Shown: in pieces, positions 1,576 to 63,670 of the stretch
How the letters are laid out: each line of letters starts with the position of its first letter
How positions within the stretch are numbered: position 1 is the first letter of the stretch
Assembly: GCA_963713925.1 (NCBI GenBank)
Contig: OY970212.1
Location: 320,001 to 384,000, forward strand
Length of the DNA: 64,000 nt
From: an uncultured bacterium
GTDB lineage: Bacteria; Babelota; Babeliae; Babelales; Vermiphilaceae
Reading direction: 5' to 3'
Notes under the pieces: model-generated
Told to the model about the DNA's origin: nothing
The model's input: only the letters and a program-made list of their open reading frames with translations
Databases searched by the model: none
Position numbers and translations under genes: made by a program

Positions 1576-1833
1576 AATTAACCTCCAAATCAGTTAAAAG
1601 ATAGGTATAAAATACCTGAACTAGGGTCCCATACGGAGCATGAGCGCAGTATGGGTATAAAAACAGGCTATTTTATACTCTGTTTCTACTTCTTATGATA
1701 CCTGATTGAGCGCCTTGAGCAAGGGCTCAATTGACAAATAGAAAACATTGGTAGGGGGTGGCAGGTAAGGGCTTAGATTGAGGTGTTAACGGATCTCACG
1801 CGCAGTTCTACAAAACATCGGGTATAAATAAAA

Positions 1834-1860
1834 ATGGCCCGAGGAATTTCCTCGGGCCAT
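1834..1860 (-). terminator. Rho-independent terminator
   Basis: atggcccgagga-a-tttcctcgggccat hairpin followed by a T-run on the minus strand, downstream of 1883..2278. Confidence 0.75.
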
Positions 1861-1882
1861 CAAATTCTATAAAACAGAAATC

Positions 1883-2278
1883 TTACTCAAGATCTTCGTT
1901 TTCATCGTTGCCAAGAACTGCGGCTTTAATTGCGTCCTTGTAGTAGACTGCTGTTGCAGCCGCTGCAGCAACAGTAAGAGTTGTAGCAGCTGAGATGTAA
2001 GGATGAGCTTTGAAGGTTTTGTTCCAGAATGAAACCGGAGCGGTAACAAAAACAGCGTTTGCTCCTTTAACAGCAGCTGACTTGGTCGCTTTAGCAAAAG
2101 TTGCAATAGCCGATGCCGGGGTTACAACTGTGGTGTTCCAAACAGTTGAGCCAGCTGACTTAAGGGTAGCAGCTACACGAGCAAGGCGTGAAGGAGTTGC
2201 TACTTTAACTTCAGCAGCGTTGTTTTGAGCAACAACTAACATTGCAGCAAATACAAAAGCATTCATATAACGGTTCAT
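1883..2278 (-). CDS. Secreted Ala-rich protein with C-terminal TM helix
   Basis: Signal peptide; HPYISAATTLTVAAAAATAVYY; RBS AAGGA. Confidence 0.8.
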   Translation of the reverse strand: MNRYMNAFVFAAMLVVAQNNAAEVKVATPSRLARVAATLKSAGSTVWNTTVVTPASAIATFAKATKSAAVKGANAVFVTAPVSFWNKTFKAHPYISAATTLTVAAAAATAVYYKDAIKAAVLGNDENEDLE

Positions 2279-2306
2279 AAAATATCCTTATGAATATGAG
2301 TTTGGT

Positions 2307-2837
2307 TTAATTAACTTCGTTTACAGGTTTATTTTCAGCGACATCTTGAGAGTCTTCGTGCAACAACTTGTATGTTTGATACACACCGGCCGCAACAATA
2401 ACAATTGAGCTTGCGATTGCTATCGGTTTCAAATACGCGTCTTTCCATTGACCGAGTTTTTCAACAACATGATTTATTTTTTCAGAAGAAATCACGTTGG
2501 AGGTTGATTCAACAGCAGTGTTCTGTTCAGTGCTTACAACGGGTTCGATTTGTGTGGCTACCGTAACTTCAGCAATGGTATCGGTGATTACAGGAGTAAC
2601 AGTAGATGTTTGAACTTCTTTTTGCGTTTGCCCAAAAAATGGTGCAATACGATCTTTGGCGGATGTTAAAGCAGAAGCTAAGGTTTTTGTGATGCCGACA
2701 ACAAAAGCGCGCTCTTGTTGATTTGATGTTCTATTAACCGAATCAACAAATGGATTCAACTCCGGGTCAAAATCGGCGCCCTTAACATGTGTATTTGCAA
2801 TAATAGTCAATGTTGCTAGAAAAATTGTGGTTCTCAC
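2307..2837 (-). CDS. Secreted protein with C-terminal TM helix
   Basis: GTG start with AGGAG; signal peptide; KPIAIASSIVIVAAGVYQTY. Confidence 0.8.
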   Translation of the reverse strand: MRTTIFLATLTIIANTHVKGADFDPELNPFVDSVNRTSNQQERAFVVGITKTLASALTSAKDRIAPFFGQTQKEVQTSTVTPVITDTIAEVTVATQIEPVVSTEQNTAVESTSNVISSEKINHVVEKLGQWKDAYLKPIAIASSIVIVAAGVYQTYKLLHEDSQDVAENKPVNEVN

Positions 2838-2943
2838 AAAGCACTCCTAAAAAAGAAAAGATGTTGCAAACAGTAATCAGCTTAGTTTAAAATACCGTAT
2901 TTGTCAAAAAAAGAGCCTGGAAAGCGTCGTTTTTTATTCTTTG

Positions 2944-3047
2944 CACCTAAGCTCACTGCATTCCGCTGGGGACCCATTTTTTTACCCAAGCTCACGGCGC
3001 TGCACTTGGGGCCCAATTTGGGAGTCCCCCATTTTAAAATGGGGGTT
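2944..3047. repeat. Cluster of three GGGYCCC...GGGTA mini-hairpin repeats
   Basis: 2944-2975 (-), 2983-3014 (-), 3021-3047 (+); same ends as the other family members. Confidence 0.75.
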
Positions 3048-3049
3048 AC

Positions 3050-8952: not shown

Positions 8953-11448
8953 TCAGTCGACGCTAACGGTCATGTGCCATCCATCAGCGCGCTCTTCAAG
9001 CATATCGATAGCTTCAGCATCCGCTTGATATACAATTGAAATAGCTTGTGAAACGCCCTTAATGGTTTGTTCGCACATGCGTATCTGCTCAATCAATTTT
9101 GGATTGAGTGAACCGATGGTGAGTGTTTGAAGCCCTGTTTTGAGCGACAGTTGCCGCTCCGTTTTTAACTTTCTGATTTGTTGAACAAGCGCAATAATCT
9201 TACTGCCATATTCATGCGCGTGCATAAAGTTTTCGCGTGATTGTAGTGCGCTAAACTTTGTTTGATGCAATGAAGGAACGCCGATCTCTTTTTTGTAAAT
9301 CAATTGATAGAGCGTTTCGGTTACATGCGGGATATAAGGTGCATACATTTGCAAGATGCGCAATGCAACATGATACAAAGTTGCTTTGGTTGCTTTGACA
9401 ATCTCAGGAGAATAAAGCTCTGGTTTAAACAATTGATCTTTGATCAGCTCAAGGTAGTTGTCGCAAAAATTGTGCCAGAAACAGTGTTCAACGCGATCAA
9501 GCGCGAGACCAAATTCATGTTGCTCAAAATACTTGCGATATTGCTGATAGCATTCGCTTGTTTGATGAATGATCCATTCATTGAGCAAGCCAAGCTGAAG
9601 CCGTTCATCAGTTGGCTTGTATGAGCTGAGATGTTCTTCAACAAAGCGGAATGCATTCCACAATTTGGTCACAAGCCGTTGGCCGATTTTCAATTGTGTG
9701 TCAGAAAAAGCAATATCAGTGCCCAAGGATCCGGTTGCTGTCCAATAGCGGATAACGTCAGCGCTGTAAGTGTTGAGTAAATTTTCTGGTTCAAGCGGAT
9801 TGTTGCCTTGCGATTTTGAGATTTTTTCCTTATTGCCGGCAAGTACGTGCCCGGAAATAACAATATCTTTCCATGGAATAATGCCATCGTGCATCCATGA
9901 TTTTACAATCGTGTAGAATGCCCATGTTCTGATAATGTCGTGCGCTTGCGGACGCATTGCCATCGGCAAGAATTCTTCAATCCCGGTTTCAAATGGATTT
10001 GTATTTTTATCATGCAAGGATGCGCAAATATAAGGAGTTATTGATGATGTATTCCAGGTATCCATCACATCAGTATCAGGACGTAGATCTGTGCTTCCGC
10101 AACCACATGACGGGGCCCCCGTGCCTTTAGCATGGGGTATATTTCCTGGAAAGCTTTGTTCTTGTGGATCAACTGGCAATGACTCTAGTGGAGCAATGAG
10201 CGGTTTGTCACACTTGTTGCAGTACCACACCGGAAATGGAATGCCAAAAAAGCGTTGGCGGGATAAGCACCAATCCCAAGAAATATTTTCAACCCAGTTT
10301 TGATATCTACTTTTCATGTAGGCTGGATACCAATTGATTTGATCGGCAAGCTCGATAAACGTCTTTTTATAATCCATAATATTCAAGAACCATTGAGACA
10401 TATTCATGTACTCAATTTCTTTCTTACAACGTTCATGGATATTGACTGAATGTATAATTGGCTTTTGCTCAATCAAAAGATTCTGTTCTTTGAGTTTGGC
10501 AATAATTGCTTCTCGAGCTGGATGAACCTTTAACCCACCAATGAAAGGTATATCAGCCTTGAATTTGCCATCAAAACCAATCGATTGCTTATATTCAAGT
10601 TTATGTTTTTTATACCATTCAATGTCAGTCTTGTCGCCGAAGGTACAACACATAACAAGGCCCGTGCCTTTGGTCGGTTCAACTTTTTCATCAGCAATAA
10701 CAGGTACCGTGAAATTAAATAATGGCACTTTTGCCCGCGTGCCGGCCAGATGCGTGTATCGTTTATCGTCAGGATGATAGAAGAGCGCAACGCACGAAGG
10801 AAGCAACTCTGGGCGCGTGGTGCCAATTAATAGATCATTACCATTTTCATCTGAGAATACGATAGTATTAAAAAATGAGGCAACCTGTGCGTCTTCGAGC
10901 TCGGCTTGGGCCACTGAGGTGCGGTCGGTGGTGCAGTAGAGGGCAGGCTCAAGTTTTTTATAGACCAATCCTTTATTGACGAGGCGAATAAACGATTCTT
11001 GAGATAGTTTGCGAACGTTGGGAGCTATAGTCGAATAGGAAAGATCCCAGTCAACAGAGAGTCCCATTTTTCGCCAAAGCTGAATAAACTGCTCTTCGGC
11101 AGCATGGCTTTCTTCCAAACATATTTTGATAAATTCTGATCGAGGAAGCTGATGGGCAACAATCTCACGTTTTTTTTCAACAAAGCGCTCAGTTGCAAGG
11201 CCGTTATCATCAAACCCAAAGGGGTAAAAGACAGACTTGCCATCCATCCGCGCAAATCGGGCACTGATATCCGTTTGGGTGTATGAAAAAATATGGCCGA
11301 TATGGAGCTTGCCGGAAACGGTCGGCGGAGGTGTGTCTATTGAATATAAAGGTCCGGGATTGTGTTTGGCCTTATAAGTTTCCTGCTCTGTCCACAGCTC
11401 GTGTGCCTTTTTTTCGTGTAATTTTGAATCGTACTGTTTTTCCATCAT
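8953..11448 (-). CDS. valS: Valine--tRNA ligase (archaeal/Rickettsia-type, no long C-terminal coiled coil)
   Basis: DTPPPTVSGKLHIGH, DWCLSRQRFFG, RPQAHDIIRTWAFYT, KISKSQGN. Confidence 0.97.
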   Translation of the reverse strand: MMEKQYDSKLHEKKAHELWTEQETYKAKHNPGPLYSIDTPPPTVSGKLHIGHIFSYTQTDISARFARMDGKSVFYPFGFDDNGLATERFVEKKREIVAHQLPRSEFIKICLEESHAAEEQFIQLWRKMGLSVDWDLSYSTIAPNVRKLSQESFIRLVNKGLVYKKLEPALYCTTDRTSVAQAELEDAQVASFFNTIVFSDENGNDLLIGTTRPELLPSCVALFYHPDDKRYTHLAGTRAKVPLFNFTVPVIADEKVEPTKGTGLVMCCTFGDKTDIEWYKKHKLEYKQSIGFDGKFKADIPFIGGLKVHPAREAIIAKLKEQNLLIEQKPIIHSVNIHERCKKEIEYMNMSQWFLNIMDYKKTFIELADQINWYPAYMKSRYQNWVENISWDWCLSRQRFFGIPFPVWYCNKCDKPLIAPLESLPVDPQEQSFPGNIPHAKGTGAPSCGCGSTDLRPDTDVMDTWNTSSITPYICASLHDKNTNPFETGIEEFLPMAMRPQAHDIIRTWAFYTIVKSWMHDGIIPWKDIVISGHVLAGNKEKISKSQGNNPLEPENLLNTYSADVIRYWTATGSLGTDIAFSDTQLKIGQRLVTKLWNAFRFVEEHLSSYKPTDERLQLGLLNEWIIHQTSECYQQYRKYFEQHEFGLALDRVEHCFWHNFCDNYLELIKDQLFKPELYSPEIVKATKATLYHVALRILQMYAPYIPHVTETLYQLIYKKEIGVPSLHQTKFSALQSRENFMHAHEYGSKIIALVQQIRKLKTERQLSLKTGLQTLTIGSLNPKLIEQIRMCEQTIKGVSQAISIVYQADAEAIDMLEERADGWHMTVSVD
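10112..10140 (+). repeat. Mini-hairpin repeat embedded in frame in valS
   Basis: ggggcccccgtgcctttagcatggggtat, nearly identical to the intergenic copy at ~43460-43487. Confidence 0.8.
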
Positions 11449-12283: not shown

Positions 12284-12348
12284 GGGGGTCCCCATCGCCT
12301 GTCACGCCATAACTCGGAGAGTGGCGGCGGAAGCCTCGAGATGGGGCG
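12284..12348 (+). repeat. Long variant of the mini-hairpin repeat
   Basis: ggggtccccatc-gcctgtcacgccataac...ggcggcggaagc-ctcgagatggggcg; core shared with 42455-42536 (-). Confidence 0.75.
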
Positions 12349-16329: not shown

Positions 16330-16471
16330 AAAAAATTCCTTATGTAATAAGACTCAAAATCATGTATATCATAGTATAATGCTATCTCTTACTACAAAAT
16401 CCATTTTTTATGATGTTACCATAATTTATCGGGGCTCCCAAGCTGACCATAGCGAGCGTGGGGTAGTTTTA

Positions 16472-33185: not shown

Positions 33186-33194
33186 GAGGATATC

Positions 33195-36515: not shown

Positions 36516-36554
36516 TGAAATCAGACCTATTGCGAAATTAAAAAAAATTGTTCT

Positions 36555-36747: not shown

Positions 36748-36812
36748 TTGGAAACTAGTTTATTAGGATTTTCAAAAATTCAACGGACTCTAAATATCGA
36801 GAATGTATAATT

Positions 36813-37547: not shown

Positions 37548-37549
37548 TC

Positions 37550-39250: not shown

Positions 39251-39253
39251 TAA

Positions 39254-39754
39254 ATGGTGCATACTCCTTTTTGTCTCACTGTAGGAGTCAAAAAGATGCT
39301 TTTCCCCTCTGCAAAAATCATTTTACGCGATCCGAATGATGCAAATAAAATTCTTCTTATCAAGAGGAATATCAATGGGAAAATTGCGTATGAGCCTGCG
39401 GGAGGAAAGTTGGAAGTCGACTTCAAAAACAAACGTGCGGAAAGTCTTGAAGAATGCGCTTTGCGAGAGGCAAAAGAAGAGCTTGGTGTTTGTGCAAAAA
39501 TAGACAAGTATATAGGAAGTTATCACTTTTTCTGGACAATTGATCCCGATAAATTTTCCTCATGTGCGGTATTTATCGGGACCATTATTTCTCGTGACAA
39601 CGATTTCAAAGCAAATGCTGATACTTGCGAACTTTCAATCGAGCCTGCATGGGTCGACGTCAGCGACATCGTTAGCTCAAAGATTGAGTTCGAGCCATCA
39701 TATGTTGGGCTTAAAGAGACCATTCTTAATTATTTTACTCAGCAAGAGCTTTGA
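39254..39754 (+). CDS. Nudix hydrolase
   Basis: GGKLE...ESLEECALREAKEELG Nudix box with insertion. Confidence 0.88.
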   Translation: MVHTPFCLTVGVKKMLFPSAKIILRDPNDANKILLIKRNINGKIAYEPAGGKLEVDFKNKRAESLEECALREAKEELGVCAKIDKYIGSYHFFWTIDPDKFSSCAVFIGTIISRDNDFKANADTCELSIEPAWVDVSDIVSSKIEFEPSYVGLKETILNYFTQQEL

Positions 39755-39928
39755 AATTTTTTTAAAAAAATTTTTTAATTCATCATCGATAATGTCTGGA
39801 TATTTGATAAGCATTATCGAGCTGAGAAGATTTTTCTTTAGATCCGGTCAAGTGTTTTTTATACATGAAATTGTCGCACAAGGTGTGCAACAATTTCATG
39901 TATTACCAATTTTTAACACTGGAATATT

Positions 39929-41089: not shown

Positions 41090-41176
41090 ATAAGCTCCTT
41101 TATACCCACACTACACTTTGTGTTTACCCAAATTTCGCTTTCGTTCTCTTTGGGGCCGTTTCATGTGGAACCTTGT

Positions 41177-42409: not shown

Positions 42410-43271
42410 AGATGTCTCCTTTAGACCCATGCTCGCTTGGGGCACAAATACTTTCACCCAAACTTTGCTTTGCTTCCGCCGTCGCCTGTTGGCTATGGCG
42501 TGACAGGCCGCATGGGATACGGCTATCGGGGCCCCCATGTGCAACAGGGGTTAAATTTTTTAATTCATAGAGAATGACCTGGTTATCAAACCTCACATCA
42601 GCGATCCATTGGTTTTTTTTAGTGCGTGATGATCGGACCTGTTGATTTTTTTCAAGGAAGATGTTGTTAATGGCGTGTAAAAGGTCTTGAGTGAGAAGAA
42701 TGTCTGCGCAGGTAAGAATTGAGTTGTTATTGTTTATTTGATCATGAAGGAAAAATGCATGATCTCCTTTATATTCAACGGTATATCGTTCTCTTATCTG
42801 TTCGTACGCATGATTGATAAAAGAAAGAAGCGGTTGTGTATCGGCAATAGAATCGGGTGAAAGGGCGGTGTAAATGCAGGGCAGGGCTGTTCTTCTTGTC
42901 ACACAATAATGTTCAGCCGGAACAAGAAGCCCCTGGCTCGTTATGCAGTGAGTATTGCCAAGGCAGGCAACCGGTTTTTGTGCACTATAGGTTATGTGAT
43001 AAATCCCGGGAGCCATCATTCTTATTGCGCATGTATGTAAAAAGGGAAATTCATTTTTAATAGCCGATATACTATCGTCACTGTTGAGTAAGGGTGCAGC
43101 TCTTTTTATAAAAGCATTGATGGTAGAGCGTGTTTCATACGCGAGGGTGTAATCGTGCTCTATGCGGAGTTGCTCGGCCCCGATTGGTTTTCTTAAAAAA
43201 TGAAACGCATACAGGCCGGTAGCAATGCAGCATGCAACACTGAAACAGAATATACTTTTTTGTATTCCCAT
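42402..43271 (-). CDS. ftsQ: Divergent FtsQ/DivIB with repeat-derived C-terminal extension
   Basis: N-terminal TM, POTRA-like segment, ADVRFDNQV; position upstream of ftsA-ftsZ. Confidence 0.65.
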   Translation of the reverse strand: MGIQKSIFCFSVACCIATGLYAFHFLRKPIGAEQLRIEHDYTLAYETRSTINAFIKRAAPLLNSDDSISAIKNEFPFLHTCAIRMMAPGIYHITYSAQKPVACLGNTHCITSQGLLVPAEHYCVTRRTALPCIYTALSPDSIADTQPLLSFINHAYEQIRERYTVEYKGDHAFFLHDQINNNNSILTCADILLTQDLLHAINNIFLEKNQQVRSSRTKKNQWIADVRFDNQVILYELKNLTPVAHGGPDSRIPCGLSRHSQQATAEAKQSLGESICAPSEHGSKGDIYG

Positions 43272-43407
43272 GAGTTCCCCAACCCTCTTTCTGTTCTTTT
43301 TTCTACTTTTTTTATGATCAAAAAGTCAATATAATTGAAAAAGACATAGAAATATTTTTACTTTTACCCCCAATGTGAAACATTTTAGTTTCCTCGTTTT
43401 GTTTTCG

Positions 43408-43500
43408 GAGTCCCCGTGCGGATTCGGGGTCCCCATACTTGGGTATGGGGTGAAAATTCGGGGCCCCCGTGCCTTGGCATGGGGTATGGGCTTGGGGTAT
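43408..43500 (+). repeat. Stacked mini-hairpin repeats upstream of rlmB
   Basis: ggggtccccatacttgggtatggggtg and ggggcccccgtgccttggcatggggtat, plus partial copies. Confidence 0.75.
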
Positions 43501-43514
43501 ATTTTGGAGTTAAT

Positions 43515-44258
43515 ATGGCGCAGCAACCTCGTGTTGACGGAGAAATTGTGTATGGGATCAATCCCATCGTTGAACTTTTGCAGGCGAAGCGACGCAAGCT
43601 TATTAGTCTGTATACGACAAAGCCAACTCCGAAATCATGGTCAAAAATTGAACAGTTAATTTCGGGGCGCTCAGTGCAAGTCAAATTTGTCTCAAAAGAT
43701 CAGCTCGCTTCCTTGGCAGGCACAACAGATCATCAAGGGGTTGTCGGTATTGCCCAAAAGATGACATTCCGTTCAAAACCTTTTACTCCTGAGACTGCGC
43801 CACTATTGGTGCTTCTTGATGGGATTCAAGATCCTCGCAATATCGGAGCTATTTTACGCTCGGTCTATTGCTCCGGGTTTTCGGGCGTCATTATTCCTCA
43901 AAAAAACAGTGCTCCGCTCAATGCAGTCGCGCTCAAATCTTCAGCCGGGCTGGCCGAGCATCTGCAGATTTATACACCGGCAAGTTCAGCTGTTGCTGTG
44001 CAAGAGTTAAAAAAAGCGGGATATCAGATCTATTTGGCTGCTTTTAACGGCGAAAATGCGGCAACACTCGAATATAAAAAACCATTATGCTTAGTCATCG
44101 GCAGCGAAGGGTCGGGCATCGACCAATCACTATTAAAAGCAGGCACGCAGGTGACGCTTCCCCAAGTGAATGCGCAAGTCTCTTACAATGCCTCCGTTGC
44201 GGCCGGTATTTTGCTCTTCTTGATTGCAATGCAACAGAGGTCTATTGCTATCCCCTGA
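43515..44258 (+). CDS. rlmB: 23S rRNA Gm2251 methyltransferase (SpoU/TrmH family)
   Basis: YGINPI, HQGV, DPRNIGAILRS, IGSEG, SYNASVA; GGAG then ATG 43515. Confidence 0.9.
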   Translation: MAQQPRVDGEIVYGINPIVELLQAKRRKLISLYTTKPTPKSWSKIEQLISGRSVQVKFVSKDQLASLAGTTDHQGVVGIAQKMTFRSKPFTPETAPLLVLLDGIQDPRNIGAILRSVYCSGFSGVIIPQKNSAPLNAVALKSSAGLAEHLQIYTPASSAVAVQELKKAGYQIYLAAFNGENAATLEYKKPLCLVIGSEGSGIDQSLLKAGTQVTLPQVNAQVSYNASVAAGILLFLIAMQQRSIAIP

Positions 44259-44307
44259 CCTATGAATCCGAATTTTCGTCGAAAGAGATGGCAAGACGAC
44301 GCTCTGC

Positions 44308-45735
44308 TTAAAAGCGAGCATCAACATTTACCCAAACGGAAACAATGCTTGCAGAGTTTTTATTTGCAGCGCCTTCGTATGATACATTAACACCAAAATC
44401 GAAACAGTCGCCATGATAGCCGATAGAACCAAATACCCCATTGGTACATGATGCCGCCTGTGCACCACTACACACGTTTATATTTTTTGCAGTTTCGAGT
44501 GTGTATGTCGGGTCACGTGGCATTTGGAATTCATTTGGATAGACACCTTCAGAAATGGTTGCTGCGCTTGAGCTCGTAACTGTGACAGGCATAGCGTTAG
44601 CAAGTTGCGCAATGCCGACAAGATCAGCAATACCGACAGCAGGGAGGCTGATGCAAGGGTCAACTTTTTCTGCTTGACGATACCAGAAATTATAGCCAAC
44701 TTCGAAAATGGCGTTGCGATGTTCAACGTGTACTGCCAAAAGGAGATCAACCGCATTGCGAGGAGTAACATCCGTTTTAAACGTAAGAACATTAATAGCG
44801 GGGAATGGAGTTGCGACTGCCGTTGGTGTTGTGAATAACAGGTAGCGTGACCATTGACCATTTGGTGTTAAATCAAATGATCGTAATTCTCGCGCCCTAC
44901 AACCATAACGCCATTTGAACTCGCCATAGAATGAAAAATAGTCACATCCGCAGAAGCCAAACGATTTCTCAGCATTACATCCAAGTCCAACTTGTGTATG
45001 CCTTGACCCGACAAGTGGCTCGAATAAATAGCGCGCTTGTGAGCCGCGTCCGGTCGGCACTCCGACTAATGCATAGATATCAGCAAAAAATGATTCCCCA
45101 CATGACCAGAAATTCTTGAGCAATTTTATTTGCAGATCATCAACACCACCTTTTGAGACCGTGCCACAAATTCTACCATAGTTCAAATCTGCATTTGCGA
45201 AAGCTTGTGTTACGGTAGCAAATCCGGGTGCTTGTCCAATATCGCCGGAAATAATGCCTTGCTCGCAAATATGTATATTATTTTTACGTTGTATTGCAGC
45301 AGTGTTTATGGTTATCGCAAAATCTGCAGGCAACATCCATGCCAAATAGAGCAGAGCGCCATAGGTCTTTTGTATCGGGTGAAAGGAGAGTGTTGAAGAA
45401 TAAAAGGTCCCCGGAGCAGAAATGACTTGGAACCATAATGGATCAATGTTACCTGAACCATTTTCTTGTACATTCATTGAGCATGCGTGATTGATGTTAA
45501 AATATTTTTTGATTGAGCTCCCGACCGTTTGAGTGTAAATAGGCTTGACTGAAAATAAAAACTGCTCATCCATGTGCGCATATTCATTAAAGACAAGTGC
45601 ATTTTCATAGATAGGGTTATAAGCCATTTGCCGTGGTACAAAGATAGTATGTGCATAGCAATCTGCCCGTAGGAGTTGAGCGTGGTTCACGAGTGCAATG
45701 AGCGCAAGTGTATATTTTGAAATAAAGATTTTCAT
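44308..45735 (-). CDS. Putative Cys-rich outer-membrane beta-barrel protein, paralog of 28180..29814
   Basis: FEPLVG, RSFDL, WSRY, EVGYNF shared; ends VWVNVDARF. Confidence 0.7.
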   Translation of the reverse strand: MKIFISKYTLALIALVNHAQLLRADCYAHTIFVPRQMAYNPIYENALVFNEYAHMDEQFLFSVKPIYTQTVGSSIKKYFNINHACSMNVQENGSGNIDPLWFQVISAPGTFYSSTLSFHPIQKTYGALLYLAWMLPADFAITINTAAIQRKNNIHICEQGIISGDIGQAPGFATVTQAFANADLNYGRICGTVSKGGVDDLQIKLLKNFWSCGESFFADIYALVGVPTGRGSQARYLFEPLVGSRHTQVGLGCNAEKSFGFCGCDYFSFYGEFKWRYGCRARELRSFDLTPNGQWSRYLLFTTPTAVATPFPAINVLTFKTDVTPRNAVDLLLAVHVEHRNAIFEVGYNFWYRQAEKVDPCISLPAVGIADLVGIAQLANAMPVTVTSSSAATISEGVYPNEFQMPRDPTYTLETAKNINVCSGAQAASCTNGVFGSIGYHGDCFDFGVNVSYEGAANKNSASIVSVWVNVDARF

Positions 45736-45747
45736 GATAATTTTCCT

Positions 45748-46977
45748 TTACAAGAGCGGTCCGTATTTTTGTTGGAGTAGTGTCACGAAAGGAGTTGCGG
45801 GTGGTGGGGTAGGTGCAGGAGTTGCATAAAATGTTGCATAAGCATTAGCATCGTTAGAATCGAGCCACGTCGCTATAAAGCCTTGAGTATTCGCACTCAA
45901 TCCAACCGGGCCTCCGATAGTTGTTGATGTGAGAGATAAAATAGAACATACTGGTGCCCAATTGAATCCATTGTTATTGGAAAGAGTCCACACTGGCGAT
46001 CCGGGGCTACCCTGACTAGCGCCAACAACCCAAGTTGACATAAATCCGGCATGATTTGCTGCAACCCATGGACCGGCATCAGGGTTAGCTGGTGATGATG
46101 TAAGTAATGAAAATACCCCCCAATTGGAAGGAATAGTAGCTGTGGCGAAAATCGTTACGCCCGAGCCTTCATTGGCTCGCGCAGCAGTCATAAAATATCC
46201 ATTTTGTTCTGCGACAATAGGAACGCTTTCAAAAAAACCTACCGCGACTATGGGATACGCGGTTGTGGAGGAAAAGGGATTGATTGATCCAAAATAGGCT
46301 GAAACGGTTGCTAGCGTTTGTGTGATCCAGCTTAACATGCAGCTATTTCCAGCCAGGGCTACGCACACGAATCCCCTTGTTGTTTGTGAGTTCCAATTTT
46401 GATTATAGACAGAGCCATCATTGGTCACTTGGGCAGGCGTGCTCCACGCACTGGTTCCCGTTGAAAAAGCCACGTAAGCGTTGTCATCAGCCCCGATCAT
46501 GGCGGCAACAAAACCTGCGGAACTTCCACCGACAAAAACATCGGAGTTGGAATTGAGTGCCAATGTGTTGGGATTTATTTGGAGTTTACCGCTCCACGTT
46601 GTGCCACTATCAGCAGAAAAACTTGACCAGCCATTATTTGAACTATCTATCCATGTTACTATAAAACCGACGCTGTTACCCGCCACAAAAACGTCTGACG
46701 AGGAAGCAACTTCTCCTTGCGCGGGCCCAACTAAACCACCATGCCACGTAATTCCATCAGGCGAAAAACTATAATTTGCATTGTTGGAAGAATCTGCCCA
46801 CACGGCCATAAATCCCGCTGGGGTGGCAGCAGAAAATATATTACTTGTTATGTTGCCGGAGTTACTTATGTTAACAGGAACAGCCCAGGGCGTAGTTGGA
46901 GCGCATGCCGCATCTAAAAGTGATGAAAAAAAACAGAAAGCAACCAACAAATTCGATAGGTATTCACTATGTACCAT
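45748..46977 (-). CDS. Secreted beta-propeller-like protein with Asp-box (BNR)-like repeats
   Basis: Repeated GF.A.W.D and SxDG.TW / SADSGTTW / SNNNGFNW. Confidence 0.7.
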   Translation of the reverse strand: MVHSEYLSNLLVAFCFFSSLLDAACAPTTPWAVPVNISNSGNITSNIFSAATPAGFMAVWADSSNNANYSFSPDGITWHGGLVGPAQGEVASSSDVFVAGNSVGFIVTWIDSSNNGWSSFSADSGTTWSGKLQINPNTLALNSNSDVFVGGSSAGFVAAMIGADDNAYVAFSTGTSAWSTPAQVTNDGSVYNQNWNSQTTRGFVCVALAGNSCMLSWITQTLATVSAYFGSINPFSSTTAYPIVAVGFFESVPIVAEQNGYFMTAARANEGSGVTIFATATIPSNWGVFSLLTSSPANPDAGPWVAANHAGFMSTWVVGASQGSPGSPVWTLSNNNGFNWAPVCSILSLTSTTIGGPVGLSANTQGFIATWLDSNDANAYATFYATPAPTPPPATPFVTLLQQKYGPLL

Positions 46978-47140
46978 TATACAACCTTCTTTGCCAATGT
47001 AGTTACGTAAATAAAAGCATTACAGGGTTGATATACCAAACAGAGAGTAATGTGTGCAAGAAAACTAACTCTTTTTTGTAGACCGGGCTTTTCTTTGAAA
47101 CTTCTTGTCCAACTTTTCAATTGTCTTATCGCTCAAGAAG

Positions 47141-47545
47141 ATTTTGCGCCTTGTCTATTGTTCCGGGTTTTCGGGCGCCATTATCCCTCAAAAAAACAGC
47201 GCTCGGCTCAACGCAGTCGCACTCAAATCTTCAGCCGGACTGGCCGAGCATCTGCAGATATATACACCGGCGAGTTCAGCCGTTGCTGTGCAAGAGTTAA
47301 AAAAAGCGGGATATCAGATCTATTTGGCAGCTTTTAATGGCGAAAATGCGGCAACCATCGAATACCGAAAACCATTATGCTTAGTCATCGGCAGCGAAGG
47401 GTCGGGCATCGATCAATCATTATTAAAAGCAGGGACACAGGTGACGCTTCCGCAAGTGAATACGCAGGTCTCTTATAACGCTTCCGTTGCGGCCGGTATT
47501 TTGCTTTTCTTGATTGCAATGCAACAGAAGTCTATCGGTAGTTGA
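47141..47545 (+). pseudogene. rlmB: 5'-truncated duplicate of the rlmB 3' half
   Basis: 47141-47535 closely matches 43851-44245; lacks the N-terminal domain and DPRN motif. Confidence 0.85.
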
Positions 47546-48273
47546 TTGATTTTTATGTTAGACGAGAATAGATATAAGTCACGTATTTTTCTAAGAAAAC
47601 GTATAGCAGATAACAAGTTTGCTTTAAAAATACCTCCTTTATAAAATTGAAAACGTAGATCGTCTAAAATAGATATCATCTCATTAAGATATGGAGACCA
47701 ATTTTCTGGTAATGTATTAATCGTATTAATGTTTGCCGTAATTAGTATCGCCAGAGTCCGAAGAGCCTCAAAAGATTCACCCATGTAGAAATTGGGACCA
47801 TTTTTGCGGACAAAATCCAAAATCTTTTCGGGAAGAGATTGCCACAGCTTAGATGCTAATTCAGTAAAATATTTTGAGGTCGGAAAATCTGACCTCAGAT
47901 GGTCATCTGTTGTGCTCTCAGCAAAAATTTGTTCAAGGCTGATATTATTATTTTTGAGCCATTCTTGAGCCCCCGGGGTTCCCAGCGCATATGCGATGGC
48001 TGATTTTGAGGTATTCCATTGTTTACTGGTGTTTTCAAGTAATGCATTTATTGTTGTAGGATCATCAAGAAGTTGTCGCCAATATGTATTGACCAAACGT
48101 TTATCTTTTAACTTTGGGATGAACTCATCAAAGGTATTGCCTTCTTTACTGAGCAGAATGATCTGCAGTTGAAGGTCTGGGGGCAGGGTTTCTTGAAGAT
48201 AATTTTGGTTAATGTCTGCGGATTGAACACACGATATTAAAAAAAATGCGTTGATTACAATTATTTTCTTCAT
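47473..48273 (-). CDS. Secreted protein with F-box-like motif
   Basis: Signal peptide ..CVQS; LPPDLQLQII...RLVNTYWRQLL; 3' end overlaps the rlmB duplicate. Confidence 0.65.
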   Translation of the reverse strand: MKKIIVINAFFLISCVQSADINQNYLQETLPPDLQLQIILLSKEGNTFDEFIPKLKDKRLVNTYWRQLLDDPTTINALLENTSKQWNTSKSAIAYALGTPGAQEWLKNNNISLEQIFAESTTDDHLRSDFPTSKYFTELASKLWQSLPEKILDFVRKNGPNFYMGESFEALRTLAILITANINTINTLPENWSPYLNEMISILDDLRFQFYKGGIFKANLLSAIRFLRKIRDLYLFSSNIKINQLPIDFCCIAIKKSKIPAATEAL

Positions 48274-48423
48274 AATTTCATCCAAAAAAAAATTATAATT
48301 CTAATATTAATTATATTAAAAGAAGTTTGTCTACGTAAATGGTTTTTAAAAACGGTTCATTCTTGACGAATTCATAATGATCGAAATAGTATCGGAAGCA
48401 GAAGAAAAATTCGAACTAACCCA

Positions 48424-48504
48424 GGGCCCCAAATCAAGCGTAAGCAAGTTTGGGGTATAATCCGGGGGTCCCCCGTGCGTAACGTAAGTGTAGCAATGGG
48501 GGTT
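48424..48504 (+). repeat. Two tandem mini-hairpin repeats upstream of dps
   Basis: gggccccaaa...tttggggta and gggggtccccc...atgggggtt. Confidence 0.75.
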
Positions 48505-48519
48505 TTTATAGGAGTTTTT

Positions 48520-49209
48520 ATGAAATATAAGTCGAGCCACTCATTGCGTTATTTGTTTTTAGTTTTCTGCTATCTAGACGCATTCGTACTCCAAGCGGGT
48601 AGTCTCATTTCAATAAAAGAAGTTGCTGCTCAAGAAAGTCCTCTTGAACAACAAGCGGACAATGCTATAGTATCAAAAAAGCAGCAATCTCAAACCGCTT
48701 TCGCACCTTCACGTGAGAGCAATCAAAAAGGATATTCTATGGAACCAAATATCGGCATAACAAAAGCAGATCAAAAAAAGATTGGCGCCTCGCTCAATAC
48801 TCTCCTTTCGGATAACTTCGCATTGTATGTGAAGCTTCTCAATTATCATTGGAACATGAAAACAAAACATTTTCATGATCTACATGCATTCTTCAAAGAA
48901 TTGTACGAAAGCCAATTTGATATCATCGATGATATTGCAGAACGCGCTCAAACGATGGGCTCCGTGGCATATGGTTCGATGGCTGAATTTCTTAAGCATA
49001 CGCAATTGAAGGAAGCTTCTGGAAAACAACTCACCGATCAACAGATGCTCAAAGATCTTCTTGCAGATTATGAAACGGTTATCAGATCGACACGTGATAC
49101 AGCAAATAAAATGCTTGATAACAACGACATTGGCACTAACAACTTTTTAATCGACATTTTAGAACGCCAAGAAAAAAAAGCGTGGATGATTCGTTCAAGC
49201 ATTGAGTAA
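48520..49209 (+). CDS. dps: Dps family ferritin-like protein; core starts at ATG 48739, with an in-frame signal-like extension from 48520
   Basis: NYHWN, HDLHAFFKELY, DDIAER, EKKAWM. Confidence 0.9.
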   Translation: MKYKSSHSLRYLFLVFCYLDAFVLQAGSLISIKEVAAQESPLEQQADNAIVSKKQQSQTAFAPSRESNQKGYSMEPNIGITKADQKKIGASLNTLLSDNFALYVKLLNYHWNMKTKHFHDLHAFFKELYESQFDIIDDIAERAQTMGSVAYGSMAEFLKHTQLKEASGKQLTDQQMLKDLLADYETVIRSTRDTANKMLDNNDIGTNNFLIDILERQEKKAWMIRSSIE

Positions 49210-49305
49210 AGCGCCCGAATTGAAAAGATGCTTCGTCGTAATACTTCGAAGTAACTGTAAATTGGGTAAAAAAATATACGCAAATATCTGAATACATTTC
49301 ACTGT

Positions 49306-49340
49306 ATAGGACGCATAAAAGTATGCGTCCTATTTTTTTC
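49306..49340 (+). terminator. Rho-independent terminator
   Basis: ataggacgcata-aaag-tatgcgtcctat-tttttt. Confidence 0.75.
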
Positions 49341-49443
49341 TTGAATCTCGTTTTTTCTCTGTGTTAAAACAGAGAAGCCCCTATTTAGTTGGGTCCCAAA
49401 ATCAGGATGAAATAAGATTTCGGGTATAATGAGGAGAAAAAGA

Positions 49444-52400
49444 ATGAAGCATTTAATACTTCGATATGTGTTATCTTCACTATTAGTCGTATGTGGATTT
49501 ACGCATGCTCAAGACGAGCAAGAAAATTTTGAAAAAATGAAATCATCTTCTGAATCGCAATCTTCGGAGCCTTTAACCGAAGAAATAGATCAACAGGCCC
49601 CGGAATCTCTCATTGATTGTCTCAATACTTTGCACGCATGTTTGCTTGCGTGTGTTGAACTTGATTATCAACCCGAATCGCTTGAGCAAATTGTGCAATG
49701 GCTGAATGATGAAAATCATGATGAAATTACGCTTGCTGAGCTCGTTGAATTACTTGTTGAAGAACTTGAGGCGACCACACTCGATGATGATCCAATTGCG
49801 GAACTTGCAAAAAAGTACATTCCTCAATTGGAACAAAATGTCGATATGTTGCGTAGTCGCTCTCTTTCTTGCGGAGACCAGAATGCGCATGAAATCGATT
49901 TAGGTGTGAGTCGTCGCGCACGCATGGGTGCAGCATTGCGCTCAAGCACATTTGTCAGACCGACATCATTGACGACAAATGGCAATCTCTATATGGTCCA
50001 TTCAAACACAGCTTCTAACGTTGGCTTTATATATAAAAATAACGTTGTCTTTATGAATGACCTGGGCACCAACAGTGTTGGGCTTGGAGCTGCCGCGGGT
50101 GAGGATATAACGACAGCTTCAGATTGCACCGCAATTGGCGCAAATGCGCTATCGCTCAACACAACAGGCAGCGACAACACCGCCGTTGGATACAATACAC
50201 TTGCGCTCTGCGTAGCCGGGGGCACAAACGTTGCCGTTGGATCGCAAGCTCTTTCAAAAACAACGGCAAGCAGTACAACTGCTGTTGGATATCAGGCAGG
50301 AACAAATCTTACCACAGGAACACAAAACACTATGCTCGGATATCAAGCGCTCATGTCGGCTACCGGTGCTACCGACAACACTGCGCTCGGATACCAAACA
50401 ATGGTCAATTCGACCGGCGGAGGAAGCAATGTCGCCGTTGGATCATTCTCATTACAAAATTACACTAGCAATTTTACGGTAGCCGTTGGACACCAAGCAG
50501 GACAAGCACTCATTTCAGGAAATGAAAACACCGTGATCGGTTATCAGGCAATGGTCAATAGTGCAGCGGGCGCGGGAAATGTTGTTGTCGGCTATCAAGC
50601 AATGAAGAATGGTGGATCGAGCAACAATGTCGCCGTCGGAGCACAGTCATTGGAAAGTTGTACCGCAGGAAATACAACTGCTGTCGGATTTTTGGCGGGA
50701 CAGCAACTTACGTCAGGATCTCAAAACACCATGCTTGGTTATGACGCATTATCCTCAAGTTTAACAGACTCCTCAAATGTCGCTGTCGGGTATGAAGCGA
50801 TGACGAATGCAATCGGCGGCTCAAACAATGTCGCTGTCGGTGTAAGCGCGTTAAGTAACATCACTGTGGGCAATACTACGGCCGTCGGATATCAAGCGGG
50901 AACTGCACTTACATCAGGAAACCAAAATACGGCAGTCGGATATCAAGCTCTTTCTTCTGCAACGACATCTTCACAAAATACTGCAGTCGGATCACAAGCG
51001 ATGGGTAACTCGACAGGAGGAAGCCAATGTGTCGCGGTTGGTCAGAATGCTTTAATTAACAATGCCTCAGGGGGAGACTTCAACGTTGCCGTCGGAGCAA
51101 ACACGCTTTCAAGTAATACTTCAGGCAATGTCAACATTGCTATTGGGGTAAATGCTTTGGACAGTAACATAGCCGGAAGCGCAAACCTTATGATAGGTGA
51201 TAATGCTGGAGCATCCTTAATTGGCGGTGGTAATAATATCGGCATTGGTCGCTTTTCTCTCAATAGTAGTGCAACTGGTTCTACTAACGTTGCAATAGGC
51301 GAAGACGCTTTGCGGGCATATATGGGAAGCTCGAGTGTCGCAATTGGCTATCAAGCAGGACAAACACTTATAACGGGATCTCAAAACACTATACTTGGCT
51401 TTCAGGCAATGCTCTCAAGCGTGACTGGTGCGTTTAATACCGCTATCGGCTATCAAGCGATGGAATCCGCAACAATAGGTCAAAACAATGTTGCTGTTGG
51501 AGATGTAGCAATGATCGCAGCCTCCGGAAATAATAATATAGCTGTGGGAGCTAGCACGCTCGTGAGTGCTACCGGAAGTGATAATATAGGTGTGGGCTTT
51601 CAAGCACTGGAGAATGTTTCTGGAAATCAAAATATCGCTATCGGTTCATCGGCCGCCGCGGGCCTTTCCACCGGAACAAAAAACACGTGTGTAGGCTACC
51701 AAGCCCTCGGATCGGCAGTTGTAAGTAACTTCTCTCAAAATACAGCCGTTGGATGGGAATCCATGTCGAATCTCACCAACGGGTCACGAAACTGCGGCTT
51801 CGGGGATCAATCGTTGCAAAATACAACCGGGACACAAAATTGCGCTTTTGGTTCTCTTTCGGGGGAAAATCTATCTTCAGGAAGCAGTAATATTTTTATC
51901 GGAGCAGGCGCAGGACAAAATATTACTACCACTTCAAATAATATTGACATAGGAAATAATGGGACTTTAGGCGATTCCGGCATCATTAGAATTGGAACAT
52001 CAGGAACCGGAGCGGGACAACAAAATCAATGCTTTATTGCGGGAATCAGCGGATCAACTTCTTCGGGCGGTGTGGCCGTGCTCGTCAATGCAAGCGGACA
52101 ACTTGGAACAACCACTTCCTCGTTACGATATAAAGAAAACATTGCCGATATTACCAATGCGACTGAAAAAATGGCTGCTTTGCATCCCGTGCAATTTAAT
52201 TATAAAGTCGATCCGATAAAACATCTTGAATTCGGACTTATTGCCGAAGAAGTTGCACCGGTCATTCCAAATATTGTTGTCTATAATGATCAAGGGCAGA
52301 TCGAAACCGTGCAATATCACCAGCTTCCAGCACTCATCATCAAAGCATGGCAGGAGCTACAAGCGGTCGTCCAATCGCAACAAGCAGCAATCGCGACACT

Positions 52401-59954: not shown

Positions 59955-60183
59955 TCTTAAACTCCTATTTCATCCCGAATTTTCAAGCAATCTCCGAACT
60001 CGGGAGGTTATTTTTTCGATCAGTATAGCCTTAGAGAATTGGTTTGGCCACTCCGTTTCGAGCGGCTTACAGCGACCTTGTTGCCTATCGGTAAAACGGC
60101 TATACTGATGGAATACCCCCGATGTAACTTTGTTGGGGGGGGCCGAAAACATCGGTTTCAACCGTCAATTATATGGAGACGTT

Positions 60184-60660: not shown

Positions 60661-60906
60661 AAATTTTTAAAGTGGGAAAAAAGAGCAATAATAAGCTGTT
60701 TTTCTGATATCAGCTACCATAAAATTAGAAAAAATGTTGAGTGTGTTGCTATCAGATAAAATAAGTTGAATTTGTTAGATTTTTTCCTATAATATTGGTA
60801 ATAGTTAATGTGAAGCCCCTTTTATTTTCGGGGCCCCCAATGAAAGCATTATGCAGCGCCATACTGAGAAGTGAGGCGTCATCGGGGTATCTATAAGGAG
60901 TTTATT

Positions 60907-61194
60907 ATGTTCGAGAAATTTCGTCCTCTTGGCGACCGTGTGTTGATTCAAAGAATAGAAGAACAAGAAAGAACAGCTTCCGGGCTTTATATCCCTGATG
61001 CCGCAAAAGAAAAGGCGCAAACCGGCCGTGTAGTTGCCGTAGGAAATGGGAAAACCACCAATGATGGCAGAGTCATTCCAATGGCTGTTAAAGCTGGAGA
61101 CACCGTCTATTTTGGTAAATATGCCGGCACCGAAACAGGCAAAGATCATTTGGTTCTTCGTGAAGATGAAATTTTAGGTATTGTAGAAAAATAA
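60907..61194 (+). CDS. groES: Co-chaperonin GroES
   Basis: [40 protein letters not shown]. Confidence 0.97.
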
Positions 61195-61211
61195 AAAACA
61201 AAGGGGACGCC

Positions 61212-61583
61212 ATGAAAAGAATAGTATTGAGCCTTGCACTCATAGCATCAACAGCTCTTTTTGGTAGCGAAAGCGGTAAAAAAGTGTCTGTGTTTGGGTG
61301 CCAAACCTTTATGAGTAAGTGCAAAAATCAAGCGATTGCGGGGATTAGTTCGAGATTTGCACCAATCAAGCAAAAAATGGCTGAGGCTCAGCACCATGAA
61401 GAAGCTCTCTTCAAGTTCAAGGCGAATGCGCTTCGTTCCATGTTTGCAAACAACAATGTCGCGCAAAAAGTGGCGCAAGCACAACATCATGAAGACTTGC
61501 TTATGAAACATCAGGCTACGGCAGTTCGTTCTTTTGCCGTTACATTTGTGGATCGTTACAAAGGCATTACACAGGTGCACTAA
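61212..61583 (+). CDS. Secreted protein with internal duplicated helix
   Basis: Signal ..LFG; QKMAEAQHHEEAL..RS and QKVAQAQHHEDLL..RS. Confidence 0.75.
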   Translation: MKRIVLSLALIASTALFGSESGKKVSVFGCQTFMSKCKNQAIAGISSRFAPIKQKMAEAQHHEEALFKFKANALRSMFANNNVAQKVAQAQHHEDLLMKHQATAVRSFAVTFVDRYKGITQVH

Positions 61584-61592
61584 GGCTAGAAT

Positions 61593-61937
61593 ATGAAAAA
61601 ATTGATAATTTCATTGATAGGGTTAACAATTCTTTCAATAATGTCTGCAGAAAAACCTGCTGAAGATATTTATATCTGGAACGAAAATGACATAGAGGCG
61701 CTTTGCAGAAAATTTGCAGCTAATCCAAATTCATTACCTTCTAATGAATTTGAAGCTCTCATTCAGTCACGATGCAAAGAATGTCGTGGGCTTTTGGGGC
61801 GTGCGCGTACAGCCTCTGATGCATGCAGCGCAATACTTGCTTCGGAAAAAGCAGTGAGATGCTTCAGAAAAGACCTAGAGCCTTTGACAGAAGAATCTGA
61901 ACTTAAGTTCGATCCAAATGGAATTTTTCTAAATTAA
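61593..61937 (+). CDS. Secreted Cys-containing hypothetical protein
   Basis: Signal [19 protein letters not shown]. Confidence 0.72.
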
Positions 61938-61952
61938 TCAGGAGTAAAAAAC

Positions 61953-63593
61953 ATGGCATCAAAAATAATTATCTTCGGTGCGCAAGCACGCGAAAAGGTG
62001 CGCAAAGGCGTCGATACATTGGCTGACGCAGTGAAAGTCACTCTCGGGCCCCGTGGACGTAACGTTATTTTCGAACGTTCATATGGTGCTCCAGCGATCA
62101 CCAAAGATGGTGTGACCGTTGCAAAAGAAATCGAGCTTGAAGATAAGCTTGAAAACATGGGCGCACAGATGGTTCGCGAAGTTGCCAGCAAAACAGCCGA
62201 TGTTGCTGGCGATGGAACAACCACTGCAACCGTGCTTGCACAAGCAATTTTCCGCGAAGGAAACAAATATGTGACCGCGGGTGCAAACCCAATGTCATTA
62301 AAGCGCGGTATTGAAAAAGCTGTTGCAGCCGTTGTTGAAGATATTAAAAAAATGGCAAAGCCAGTCAACAATAAAAAAGAAATTGAACAAGTTGCCACCA
62401 TTTCTGCCAATTCAGACGTTGCAATCGGTGAATTGATTGCTCACGCAATGGAAAAAGTTGGTCGCGATGGCGTGATCACCGTTGAAGAAGCAAAAGGAAT
62501 GTTCGACGAGCTCGACATTGTGGAAGGTATGCAATTTGATCGCGGTTACTTGTCACCTTATTTTGTGACAAACCAAGAGAAAATGGAAACCGTTCTTGAA
62601 AATCCTGTGATTCTCATCCACGAGAAGAAAATCAGCAGCATGAAGTCGATGTTGCCAGTGCTTGAACAAGTTGCAAAAACTGGTCGCTCACTCCTCATCA
62701 TCGCTGAAGATGTTGAGGGCGAAGCGCTTGCAACGCTCGTTGTCAACCGTTTGCGTGGCACACTCAACGTTGCAGCAGTGAAAGCTCCCGGCTTTGGAGA
62801 CCGTCGCAAAGCGATGCTTGAAGATATTGCCACTTTGACCGGCGGTAAGATGATTGCTGAAGAAGTCGGCCTCAAGCTTGAAAGCATCAGTGTGCATGAT
62901 CTTGGTGTCGCAAAACGTGTTGTCTTGACCAAAGATAACTGCACCATCATTGAAGGCCAAGGCAGCCAAGACGCAATCAAGGGACGCGTTGCTCAAATTC
63001 GCATGCAAATTGAAAACACATCATCAGACTACGATCGTGAGAAGCTCCAAGAGCGTCTTGCCAAGATCGCAGGCGGTGTTGCAGTGATCAAAGTTGGTGC
63101 GGCAACTGAAGTTGAAATGAAAGAAAAGAAAGATCGCATTGATGATGCATTGAGCGCAACCAGAGCTGCTGTTGAAGAAGGTATTGTTGCCGGCGGTGGC
63201 GTTACATTGCTTCGCGCGCAAACAGCTGTCGAAAAACTTGCTCTGACCGGTGATGAAAAATTGGGCGCACAAATCGTATGGCGCGCACTTGAAGAACCAT
63301 TGCGCATCATTTCTTCAAATGCTGGTTTTGAAGCATCAGTGATTGTTAACAAAGTGAAATCAGAAACTGGTTCAATGGGCTTTGATGCAAAGAACGGTGA
63401 ATATGTCGATATGGTCAAAGAAGGTATTATTGACCCGGCAAAAGTAGCTCGCTCTGCAATTCAAAATGCTGCTTCAATTGCAGGATTGTTGCTTACCACA
63501 GAAGCAACCATCTGCGAAATTCCACAAGAAAAGAAAGAAGCTGCTCCTGTGAACCCAGGAATGGGTGGCATGGGCGGAATGGGAATGTACTGA
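61953..63593 (+). CDS. groEL: Chaperonin GroEL
   Basis: [31 protein letters not shown] tail. Confidence 0.98.
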
Positions 63594-63670
63594 TACCCAA
63601 GCTCCGCAAATGCTCCGCTTGGGTGCCCGTAAACCTACGAAGTAAACCTTACGTAGCATTTTAAAAACTG

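Follow-up and report, generated by a model that had tools for sequence, protein, structure and literature searches.

A polar hairpin repeat family, very probably mobile, in the genome of an uncultured Babelota bacterium

Several described systems come close to the repeat reported here. Repetitive extragenic palindromic (REP) elements, REPINs and bacterial interspersed mosaic elements (BIMEs) that go with REP-associated tyrosine transposases (RAYTs) are polar hairpins of 20-40 nucleotides (nt) in hundreds of copies, with a 4-nt unpaired 5' tag and a short unpaired tail; they are mostly intergenic, with some copies in genes, and have species-specific variants (PMC3733652 and PMC6006769, in their accessible parts). 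The spread of CGTC-tagged repeats without a RAYT is left open in the accessible text of PMC3733652. The cut that SsnA makes in single-stranded DNA lies a few nt upstream of a polar hairpin, the NTS/SRM repeats of the Ssn system (cd10448) are directional hairpins with conserved bases just outside the stem, and GIY-YIG nucleases have been suggested for such repeats, with mobility not shown (PMC11893778, available part). In this study, a stretch of 64,000 nt (the window) was analysed, which covers positions 320001-384000 of G000, a 1.32-Mb single-contig genome with 40.8% GC from an uncultured bacterium of the Vermiphilaceae (Babelota). The window carries a family of short polar hairpins, here named R1; R2 and R3 denote a second and a third repeat family. 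R1 shares the above features of the REP and NTS/SRM repeats and, as in the Ssn case, belongs to a symbiont whose genome holds a small GIY-YIG gene that stands alone between inverted repeats (available part of PMC11893778). R1 is very probably a mobile element. The reading that we prefer, at a probability of roughly 0.55, is that it moves as a folded single DNA strand, which is cut by a nuclease acting in trans and patched into short A/T-rich microhomologies.

The R1 family is real. The original prediction had listed 24 stretches of a high-copy hairpin family in the window, and all 24 were found at the same positions and on the same strands, with a GGYCCC head in 17, a GGGT tail in 20 and both in 13. 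The sites without both canonical ends look like decayed copies, and 42424-42443 is doubtful. The strict pattern matched 11 times in the window against 0.19 expected (largest 1 in 100 shuffles), and genome-wide 211 copies were counted in G000, while six Markov-simulated genomes gave 8-18 and reversal of the genome gave 18; the motif is therefore enriched over composition-matched nulls, for which simulations, reversal and shuffles were used. The copy sets differ by rule (211 under the standard rule, 276 in G000 under the lenient one, subsets of 146-198 in individual tests). A profile that used the letters only recovered 17 window sites and added 42529-42552 alone, while a match at 26610-26639 in hisS was excluded, reading as ordinary coding sequence. 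Tandem copies, copies in genes (27 of 174, one of them in valS) and copies inside another repeat (R2) were all confirmed. The predicted stack at 43408-43500 does contain multiple copies, its exact form being two copies nested in a third. The labels of outer membrane proteins at 28180 and 31587 and of an adhesin at 49444 stayed unverified: the first two have no Pfam or NCBIfam match, and the third matches only a C-terminal Peptidase_S74. Gene calls in G000 came from a simple purpose-made caller, in which the choice of start used a ribosome-binding site (RBS) score; the names valS, ftsA, ftsZ, groES, groEL, dps-like and rlmB-like rest on searches of the window proteins, and murC, prmC, rpsP and rplS on reading of the protein sequences. 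The copies and the features associated with them are as follows.

1624-1657, + strand: long copy with GNA internal loop
2944-2975, - strand: decayed copy, second unit of a head-to-tail pair with 2983-3014
2983-3014, - strand: copy, first unit of the head-to-tail pair with 2944-2975
3021-3047, + strand: short copy with mutated head, head-to-head with 2983-3014
10112-10140, + strand: short copy in frame, antisense, within valS (8953-11448, - strand), adding 10-11 residues; missing in 11 of 11 orthologues
12284-12348, + strand: copy with the repeat family R3 in its loop
12600-12627, - strand: short copy with mutated head
16431-16465, + strand: long copy with mutated head
28132-28163, + strand: long copy, its end 18 nt upstream of the start at 28180
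29813-29873, - strand: enlarged-loop copy abutting the stop of 28180-29814
31515-31538, + strand: short copy, first of a head-to-tail pair
31544-31566, + strand: short copy, second of the pair with 31515-31538, 22 nt before a start
33921-33963, + strand: empty R2 copy, flanking the small GIY-YIG gene on its left; at the paralogous site, G000:141.6 kb, R2 is filled with R1
33976-34260, + strand: gene for a 94-aa stand-alone GIY-YIG nuclease, UPF0213-like, candidate trans-acting enzyme
34265-34307, - strand: R2 copy in inverted orientation, flanking the GIY-YIG gene on its right
36556-36639, + strand: R2 copy hosting R1 36575-36610; inverted R2 partner at 36704-36746
36575-36610, + strand: long R1 inserted in R2, which exceeds the empty R2 copies by about 41 nt and has a 3-nt duplication
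38003-38029, + strand: short copy with decayed tail
41125-41157, - strand: long copy in the ftsA-ftsZ spacer; 0 of 79 relatives with a copy upstream of ftsZ
42424-42443, - strand: doubtful, strongly decayed copy before ftsA
42455-42536, - strand: copy with an R3 repeat in its loop
42529-42552, + strand: short copy missed earlier, sharing a palindromic head with 42455-42536
43407-43500, + strand: nest before the rlmB-like gene, an outer copy enclosing two inner ones in head-to-tail order (43426-43451, 43460-43485)
48424-48457, + strand: long copy, first of a head-to-tail pair
48464-48504, + strand: G5/C5 copy, 17 nt upstream of the dps-like gene's start
49391-49426, + strand: long copy before the start at 49444
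60114-60144, - strand: decayed copy
60830-60890, + strand: enlarged-loop copy before groES
63594-63628, - strand: long copy with mutated head, abutting the groEL stop

The anatomy of R1 is asymmetric. The layout runs G(n)-Y-C(n), four further paired positions, a loop, G(n), T and 3-5 A/T, and the hairpin core is 23-35 nt long and gene-less. Moreover, the G-run of the head matches the C-run of the stem, the two lengths being (3,3) in 109 of 198 copies and (4,4) in 53; where the fourth stem base is C, the head has a G at its fourth position in 57 of 63 copies, and where it is A, in 5 of 104. Among 186 copies, 54 were short, 98 long and 4 intermediate, and 30 had another repeat or more R1 in the loop. 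When sites were taken without a pairing filter, 96 of 150 GGGTCCC sites had GGGT 14-45 nt downstream, and stem positions 4-7 behind them were paired in 81-86% of cases against 47-51% after shuffling (largest 65% in 1000), whereas only 27 of 150 GGGACCC sites had a downstream GGGT and these showed no excess pairing. R1 is therefore polar, the covarying stems standing behind GGGTCCC and not behind GGGACCC.

In addition, only one strand of R1 folds, whatever the direction in which the genes around it are transcribed. The 68 non-Watson-Crick stem pairs in 174 copies include 48 G.T and 3 A.C, and copies antisense to genes keep the same skew (11 against 1). GNA...GNA internal loops occur in 47 of 98 long copies and in none on the other strand, and 27 of 54 short copies have G..A loops, compared with 4 on the reversed strand. 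The loops had been described as variable; their letters do differ between copies and lineages, but they are not free, as the G.A motifs are kept. Sheared G.A pairs make DNA hairpins more stable, and loops of this kind also fit an RNA fold. The reading at the DNA level thus rests on the independence from transcription, and on this ground the fold probably acts in DNA rather than in RNA. Long R1 and R2 have nearly the same GNA/GNA apical module. In another carrier genome, G009, many copies are accompanied by a decayed partner in inverted orientation, with which they share a G4-T-C4 head (4 of 26 clear), and no such partner was seen among 75 T-centred G000 copies; the G009 partners suggest that the G-run of the head began as an arm of a partner hairpin.

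The evidence for insertion comes first of all from filled and empty sites. R2, with 77 right-arm matches, occurs both empty and filled with R1: the R2 copy to the left of the GIY-YIG gene in the window is empty, and the same place at the paralogue at G000:141.6 kb has a 33-nt R1 insert. In the filled and empty pairs without flank mismatch, the inserts measured 33, 33, 41, 41, 41 and 42 nt, which equals the core plus about 7-9 nt, and R1 inserts overall were 30-33 or 39-43 nt long. Candidate empty sites at first numbered 87 of 191, many being tandem neighbours or chance matches with two mismatches, and the evidence is limited to pairs with zero or one mismatch within known repeats. Copies with no empty site at all had been named as grounds for rejecting mobility, and the comparison instead revealed R1 insertions. 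Among orthologous sites of the genus g10, one was empty in 3 relatives, its junction being confounded by a second insertion. The copy in valS adds its residues in frame. At the protein level, the insertion site could be aligned in 8 of 23 genes, several of them ambiguously, with size differences of +10 in valS, +10 and +15 in two others, and +15 and -25 in one gene.

Target duplications were also found. Exact 8-nt duplications flank the copies at G000:168169 and G000:880850, an R1 inserted in R1 in genome G140 has a 4-nt duplication, and the arrays of genome G244 are bounded by exact repeats of 6-8 nt; overall the duplications are 3-8 nt long, often imperfect or absent, and not of fixed length. 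Genome-wide, the two flanks agreed at 6 or more of 8 positions in 23 of 146 non-tandem G000 copies, against 6.9 after shuffling (largest 14 in 500), a signal that is real but weak. The 5' flank was also considered as a reverse-complement copy of the target or the stem, for which no per-copy signal was seen, and the idea that inserts span whole helical turns was dropped, as the array units of G244 run from 28 to 36 nt. Neighbouring copies within 60 nt stand head-to-tail in 20 of 24 cases in G000. Furthermore, R1 lies beside or inside other repeat motifs in 29 of 159 cases against 14.4 expected (largest 28 in 1000), about twofold; 16 strict copies genome-wide carry the motif of another repeat in the loop, compound nests are copied whole, and in G000, G231 and G256, which belong to three genera, R1 copies stand directly at the same edge of R2. 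In G244, at loci L454, L456, L457, L463, L464 and L467, a TA-flanked repeat of about 200 bp with terminal inverted repeats carries R1 arrays of up to 6 units.

The distribution of R1 is patchy. The G3 and G4 patterns were pooled and surveyed in 261 Babeliales genomes, 80 of them in the same family, and a genome was called rich with at least 10 matches. In the family, 14 of the 80 genomes are rich, namely G000, G006, G011, G231, G244 and 9 of the 11 genomes of g10; G120 and G140, from two other families, are rich too, and G129 and G034 have a few copies. Sister genomes can lack R1 (G020, G250). The loops are lineage-specific and the ends constant. One apparent copy before rpsP in G207 was a false positive, being invisible in the leader, and that genome has no copy in 400 kb. 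Pattern scans of metagenomes and viruses gave a stem of at least 7 in 38 of 216 loci, all single and mostly chance-like; one locus, L191, looks like a true R1 copy, and at these loci no enzyme gene flanked by R1 copies was found. In G057 (L119-L121), a different multi-copy repeat of 43 nt has the same GGGYCCC head and GGGT tail with another fold. The REP-like mobile element of the original prediction thus stands, on the filled and empty sites, the in-frame insertions, the patchy distribution and the folding of one strand.

R1 copies in G000 lie close to gene starts. Of 152 intergenic copies, 21 end 17-22 nt before a start on the same strand, against a null of 2.6 (largest 10 in 2000), a count to which the RBS-scored choice of starts may add some bias. 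No such excess was found in G244 (1 of 74; null 1.5) or G009 (1 of 32; null 0.8), so the predicted position just 5' of the RBS is real in G000 and unseen in these two carriers. The orthologous groES, rlmB and rplS leaders examined in relatives have no R1 copy; in G244, an R1 array stands before ftsA, where G000 has its doubtful copy. The flank after the tail is A-rich and then G-rich (G at 0.52 in position 10 and 0.42 in position 11), and since this also holds for copies far from starts, leaders fit a preferred R1 site. The copies next to an RBS are likely tolerated insertions at A-rich, G-containing leaders, and a few are perhaps kept as stabilisers of mRNA.

The copies do not behave as ordinary terminators. 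As predicted, U-tails are mostly lacking (only 22 of 174 copies have at least five T in the 8 nt after the stem), only 17 of 174 copies lie between convergent genes, and none of the seven listed entries at 41-50 kb of the window is among the 12 terminator-like sites there. Between co-directional genes, 60 copies are sense and 38 antisense; on the leading and lagging strands there are 99 and 75, which is no lagging-strand bias. The tail was also rejected as a -10 box, as the geometry leaves the transcript no room for a Shine-Dalgarno sequence and promoter-like sites are at chance (22 against 20.5). Among the 71 copies that face an oncoming gene, 14 end within 8 nt of its stop codon, for example at window positions 63594 (groEL) and 29813. 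The rlmB-like gene is partly duplicated, with 91% DNA identity over 395 bp between 43851-44245 and 47141-47535.

Established mobilising enzymes do not track R1. A Y1 gene exists only as a fragment in G000, and two tests of five genomes each found Y1 in none and in one of them, respectively; the copies of the positive genome are ordinary IS200 elements with their own ends. At G000:735828-736052, there is a broken IS200-like Y1 gene with a left-end hairpin. Of 80 genomes, 1 had a match above the cut-off of the RAYT model, and R1 copies do not flank it; incomplete genomes cannot show absence. Reverse transcriptase was rejected: five carrier genomes, of which three are at least 95% complete, had no RVT_1. 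IS110 was rejected too; it has three identical copies in G000, located at another repeat, and was found in 0 of 5 other carriers. Those copies (G000:1121048-1122449, 678410-679758 and 1276151-1277552) encode identical 313-aa proteins; each copy starts with a hairpin repeat, which in two of the three carries a further nested repeat. In the genomes tested, RAYT, IS200 TnpA, reverse transcriptase and IS110 do not follow R1, and no dedicated enzyme was found.

G000 has four small GIY-YIG genes, each with its own flanking repeat, and the best solved relatives of the 94-aa protein in the window are UPF0213 proteins. The gene lies between inverted R2 copies (33921-34307), and most of 30 homologous loci have the same layout, on which no paper came up in the literature searched. 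In G256, one UPF0213 cassette ends in R1 on both sides, outside its R2 copies; no small GIY-YIG gene flanked in this way was found in G000. A UPF0213 gene is present in 11 of 14 rich genomes and in 28 of 66 others (p 0.019). That an enzyme reads the ends and the fold, and not the loop, is half supported: the ends and the pairing of the stem stay the same across lineages in which the letters of stem and loop differ, but the G.A loop motifs are kept and no enzyme was found. A GC-rich hairpin, which we take to resemble an IS200/IS605 end, stands just upstream of the cassette at 33874-33892. A contig of run X1 joins two R2-like arms across the GIY-YIG gene, and probably reflects a gene-less R2 pair elsewhere in the genome.

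On the preferred reading, the hairpin and a short spacer would be released from single-stranded DNA at a fork or repair gap, and the released unit would recombine, by host repair, into a target resembling the spacer. Good homology would leave exact duplications and hybrid ones would arise elsewhere, while re-insertion or slippage would build arrays. The cutter would be borrowed in trans. A UPF0213-type GIY-YIG nuclease with R2 flanks is a weak candidate for it, which we put forward tentatively. A more specific form, in which the hairpin with its 7-9 nt spacer leaves as a single-stranded circle of 30-43 nt and re-enters through a crossover at an A/T-rich microhomology, as a hyperparasite of UPF0213 cassettes and other hairpin repeats that builds head-to-tail arrays and here settles just upstream of the RBS, seems unlikely to us; if it were true, R1 would be among the smallest mobile elements known.

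A number of points speak against the strand-transfer reading and its candidate enzyme. Duplications are not recognisable in 123 of the 146 non-tandem copies, whose flanks agree at fewer than 6 of 8 positions, and G009 has none above shuffles. Many copies have spread passively inside larger repeats, and the copy number therefore overstates the independent jumps. Three DNA runs compared over window positions 31000-50500, which yielded only short contigs, contained no strain-level empty site and no joint skipping a hairpin, a result that weighs on neither side; no intermediate was observed. The 19 G000 genes with R1 on both sides, read by eye, include none that is nuclease- or transposase-like. 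Moreover, only 1 of 30 UPF0213 loci is flanked by R1 (in G256) and none in G000, and the p value given above overstates the association because 9 of the 14 rich genomes are one genus. G244, which has the youngest-looking arrays and is 92% complete in one contig, has no small GIY-YIG gene (it shares 559 of 1321 G000 proteins), and G006 (61% complete) and G257 (98%) gave no match to the UPF0213 query. GIY-YIG enzymes cut DNA but are not known to rejoin it, so that insertion must rely on host repair.

The arrays of up to 6 units in G244, which also lacks a Y1 gene, could also be put down to host replication and repair without a dedicated enzyme, that is to template switching, slippage and gene conversion together with hitch-hiking in miniature inverted-repeat transposable elements (MITEs) and other repeats. 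The sloppy, variable junctions fit this explanation, as do the inverted partners with a shared head in G009 (4 of 26 clear), which have a cruciform-prone shape; on the other side, without a protein that reads the ends it is difficult to explain why the asymmetric ends stay fixed over at least four families, why insert sizes fall in a narrow range and how single copies came to lie in unrelated genes, and we consider host repair by itself an unlikely account. Slightly less likely again is an HUH (Y1) transposase of RAYT or TIRYT type, using GGGY as the guide tetranucleotide at the foot of the hairpin, with its gene since lost from most carriers. The folding of one strand fits, GGGC or GGGT precedes the hairpin in 174 of 186 copies, REP sequences are likewise built with an unpaired 4-nt tag on the 5' side of a short hairpin (accessible part of PMC6006769), and TIRYT ends begin with GGGGWSAS (accessible part of PMC3733652). 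This octamer, however, occurs in 0 of 186 copies, the lagging-strand bias is missing (99 against 75), and Y1 and RAYT genes, apart from the fragment in G000, are rare among the genomes tested, the Y1 copies having ends of their own and the RAYT match not being flanked by R1. Young R1 copies have a duplication, whereas HUH insertion is not known to leave one.

Selection of R1 at many genes as a host RNA signal, whether a 5' stabiliser, a translational control or a terminator, would account for the copies close before starts (21 of 152), the sense excess (60 against 38) and the array before ftsA in G244. Nevertheless, the start excess is confined to G000 when compared with G244 and G009, the spacer copy before ftsZ recurs in 0 of 79 relatives, antisense and in-gene copies keep the same strand-specific fold, 0 of 7 entries at 41-50 kb are among the terminator-like sites, only 17 of 174 copies lie between convergent genes, and Rfam has no match in the window; we regard this explanation as quite improbable. 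A bacterial element resembling short interspersed nuclear elements, with a small hairpin RNA that ends in an A-rich tail and is copied into nicks by a reverse transcriptase, would agree with the polarity, the A-rich tail and variable duplications that often start with AA, but RVT_1 occurs in 0 of 5 carriers and neither a promoter nor a strong enough sense bias is in sight, which leaves it barely credible. Compared with all of these, the transfer of a folded strand cut in trans is the reading that we retain.

In the literature covered, as far as its accessible parts go and with subscription journals outside the search, there is no description of R1 or of palindromic repeats in Babelota, although the kind of object is familiar. 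R1 offers many filled and empty pairs, young arrays whose boundaries carry exact duplications, and a synthetic substrate of 33 nt, and these make the step from cut to insertion testable. It also illustrates how about 200 insertions, a number of them in frame in essential enzymes, can be tolerated by a reduced intracellular genome. If the circle form of the reading were true, UPF0213 nucleases would gain a substrate and GGGY would become a third tag class beside GTAG and CGTC.

The Rickettsia palindromic elements (RPEs) are mostly longer than R1. They resemble it in their in-frame insertions in housekeeping proteins of an intracellular bacterium (accessible part of PMC3733652), and differ in phylum, while R1 lacks the CGTC tag and has tandem arrays and mutual nesting. 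Bacterial MITEs are likewise gene-less and inserted with short duplications; R1, however, has no terminal inverted repeats (no complementary base between the 4-nt head and the tail in 170 of 186 copies), is shorter than their 70-300 bp (accessible part of PMC3733652) and has no fixed duplication length. The TIRYT comparison fails on the missing GGGGWSAS, and no Y1 gene with such ends was found. Unlike the Ssn repeats, R1 has the published SRM motif in 0 of 156 copies (available part of PMC11893778), and the nuclease in the window is UPF0213-like and flanked by R2, with R1 at both ends in 1 of 30 cassettes. In comparison with REP sequences, the tag is GGGY (GGGC in 91 and GGGT in 83 of 186 copies) instead of GTAG or CGTC; a GTAG/GTGG or CGTC tag within 6 nt of the stem occurs in 3 of 186 copies and in 0 on the other strand. 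The G-run of the R1 tag is as long as the C-run of the stem, short duplications are present, and no RAYT cassette was found. R1 is mostly head-to-tail, and inverted doublets do not predominate, whereas head-to-tail dimers of CGTC repeats are negligible (accessible part of PMC3733652). In conclusion, R1 behaves like the REP, RPE and SRM elements but fails their sequence tests.

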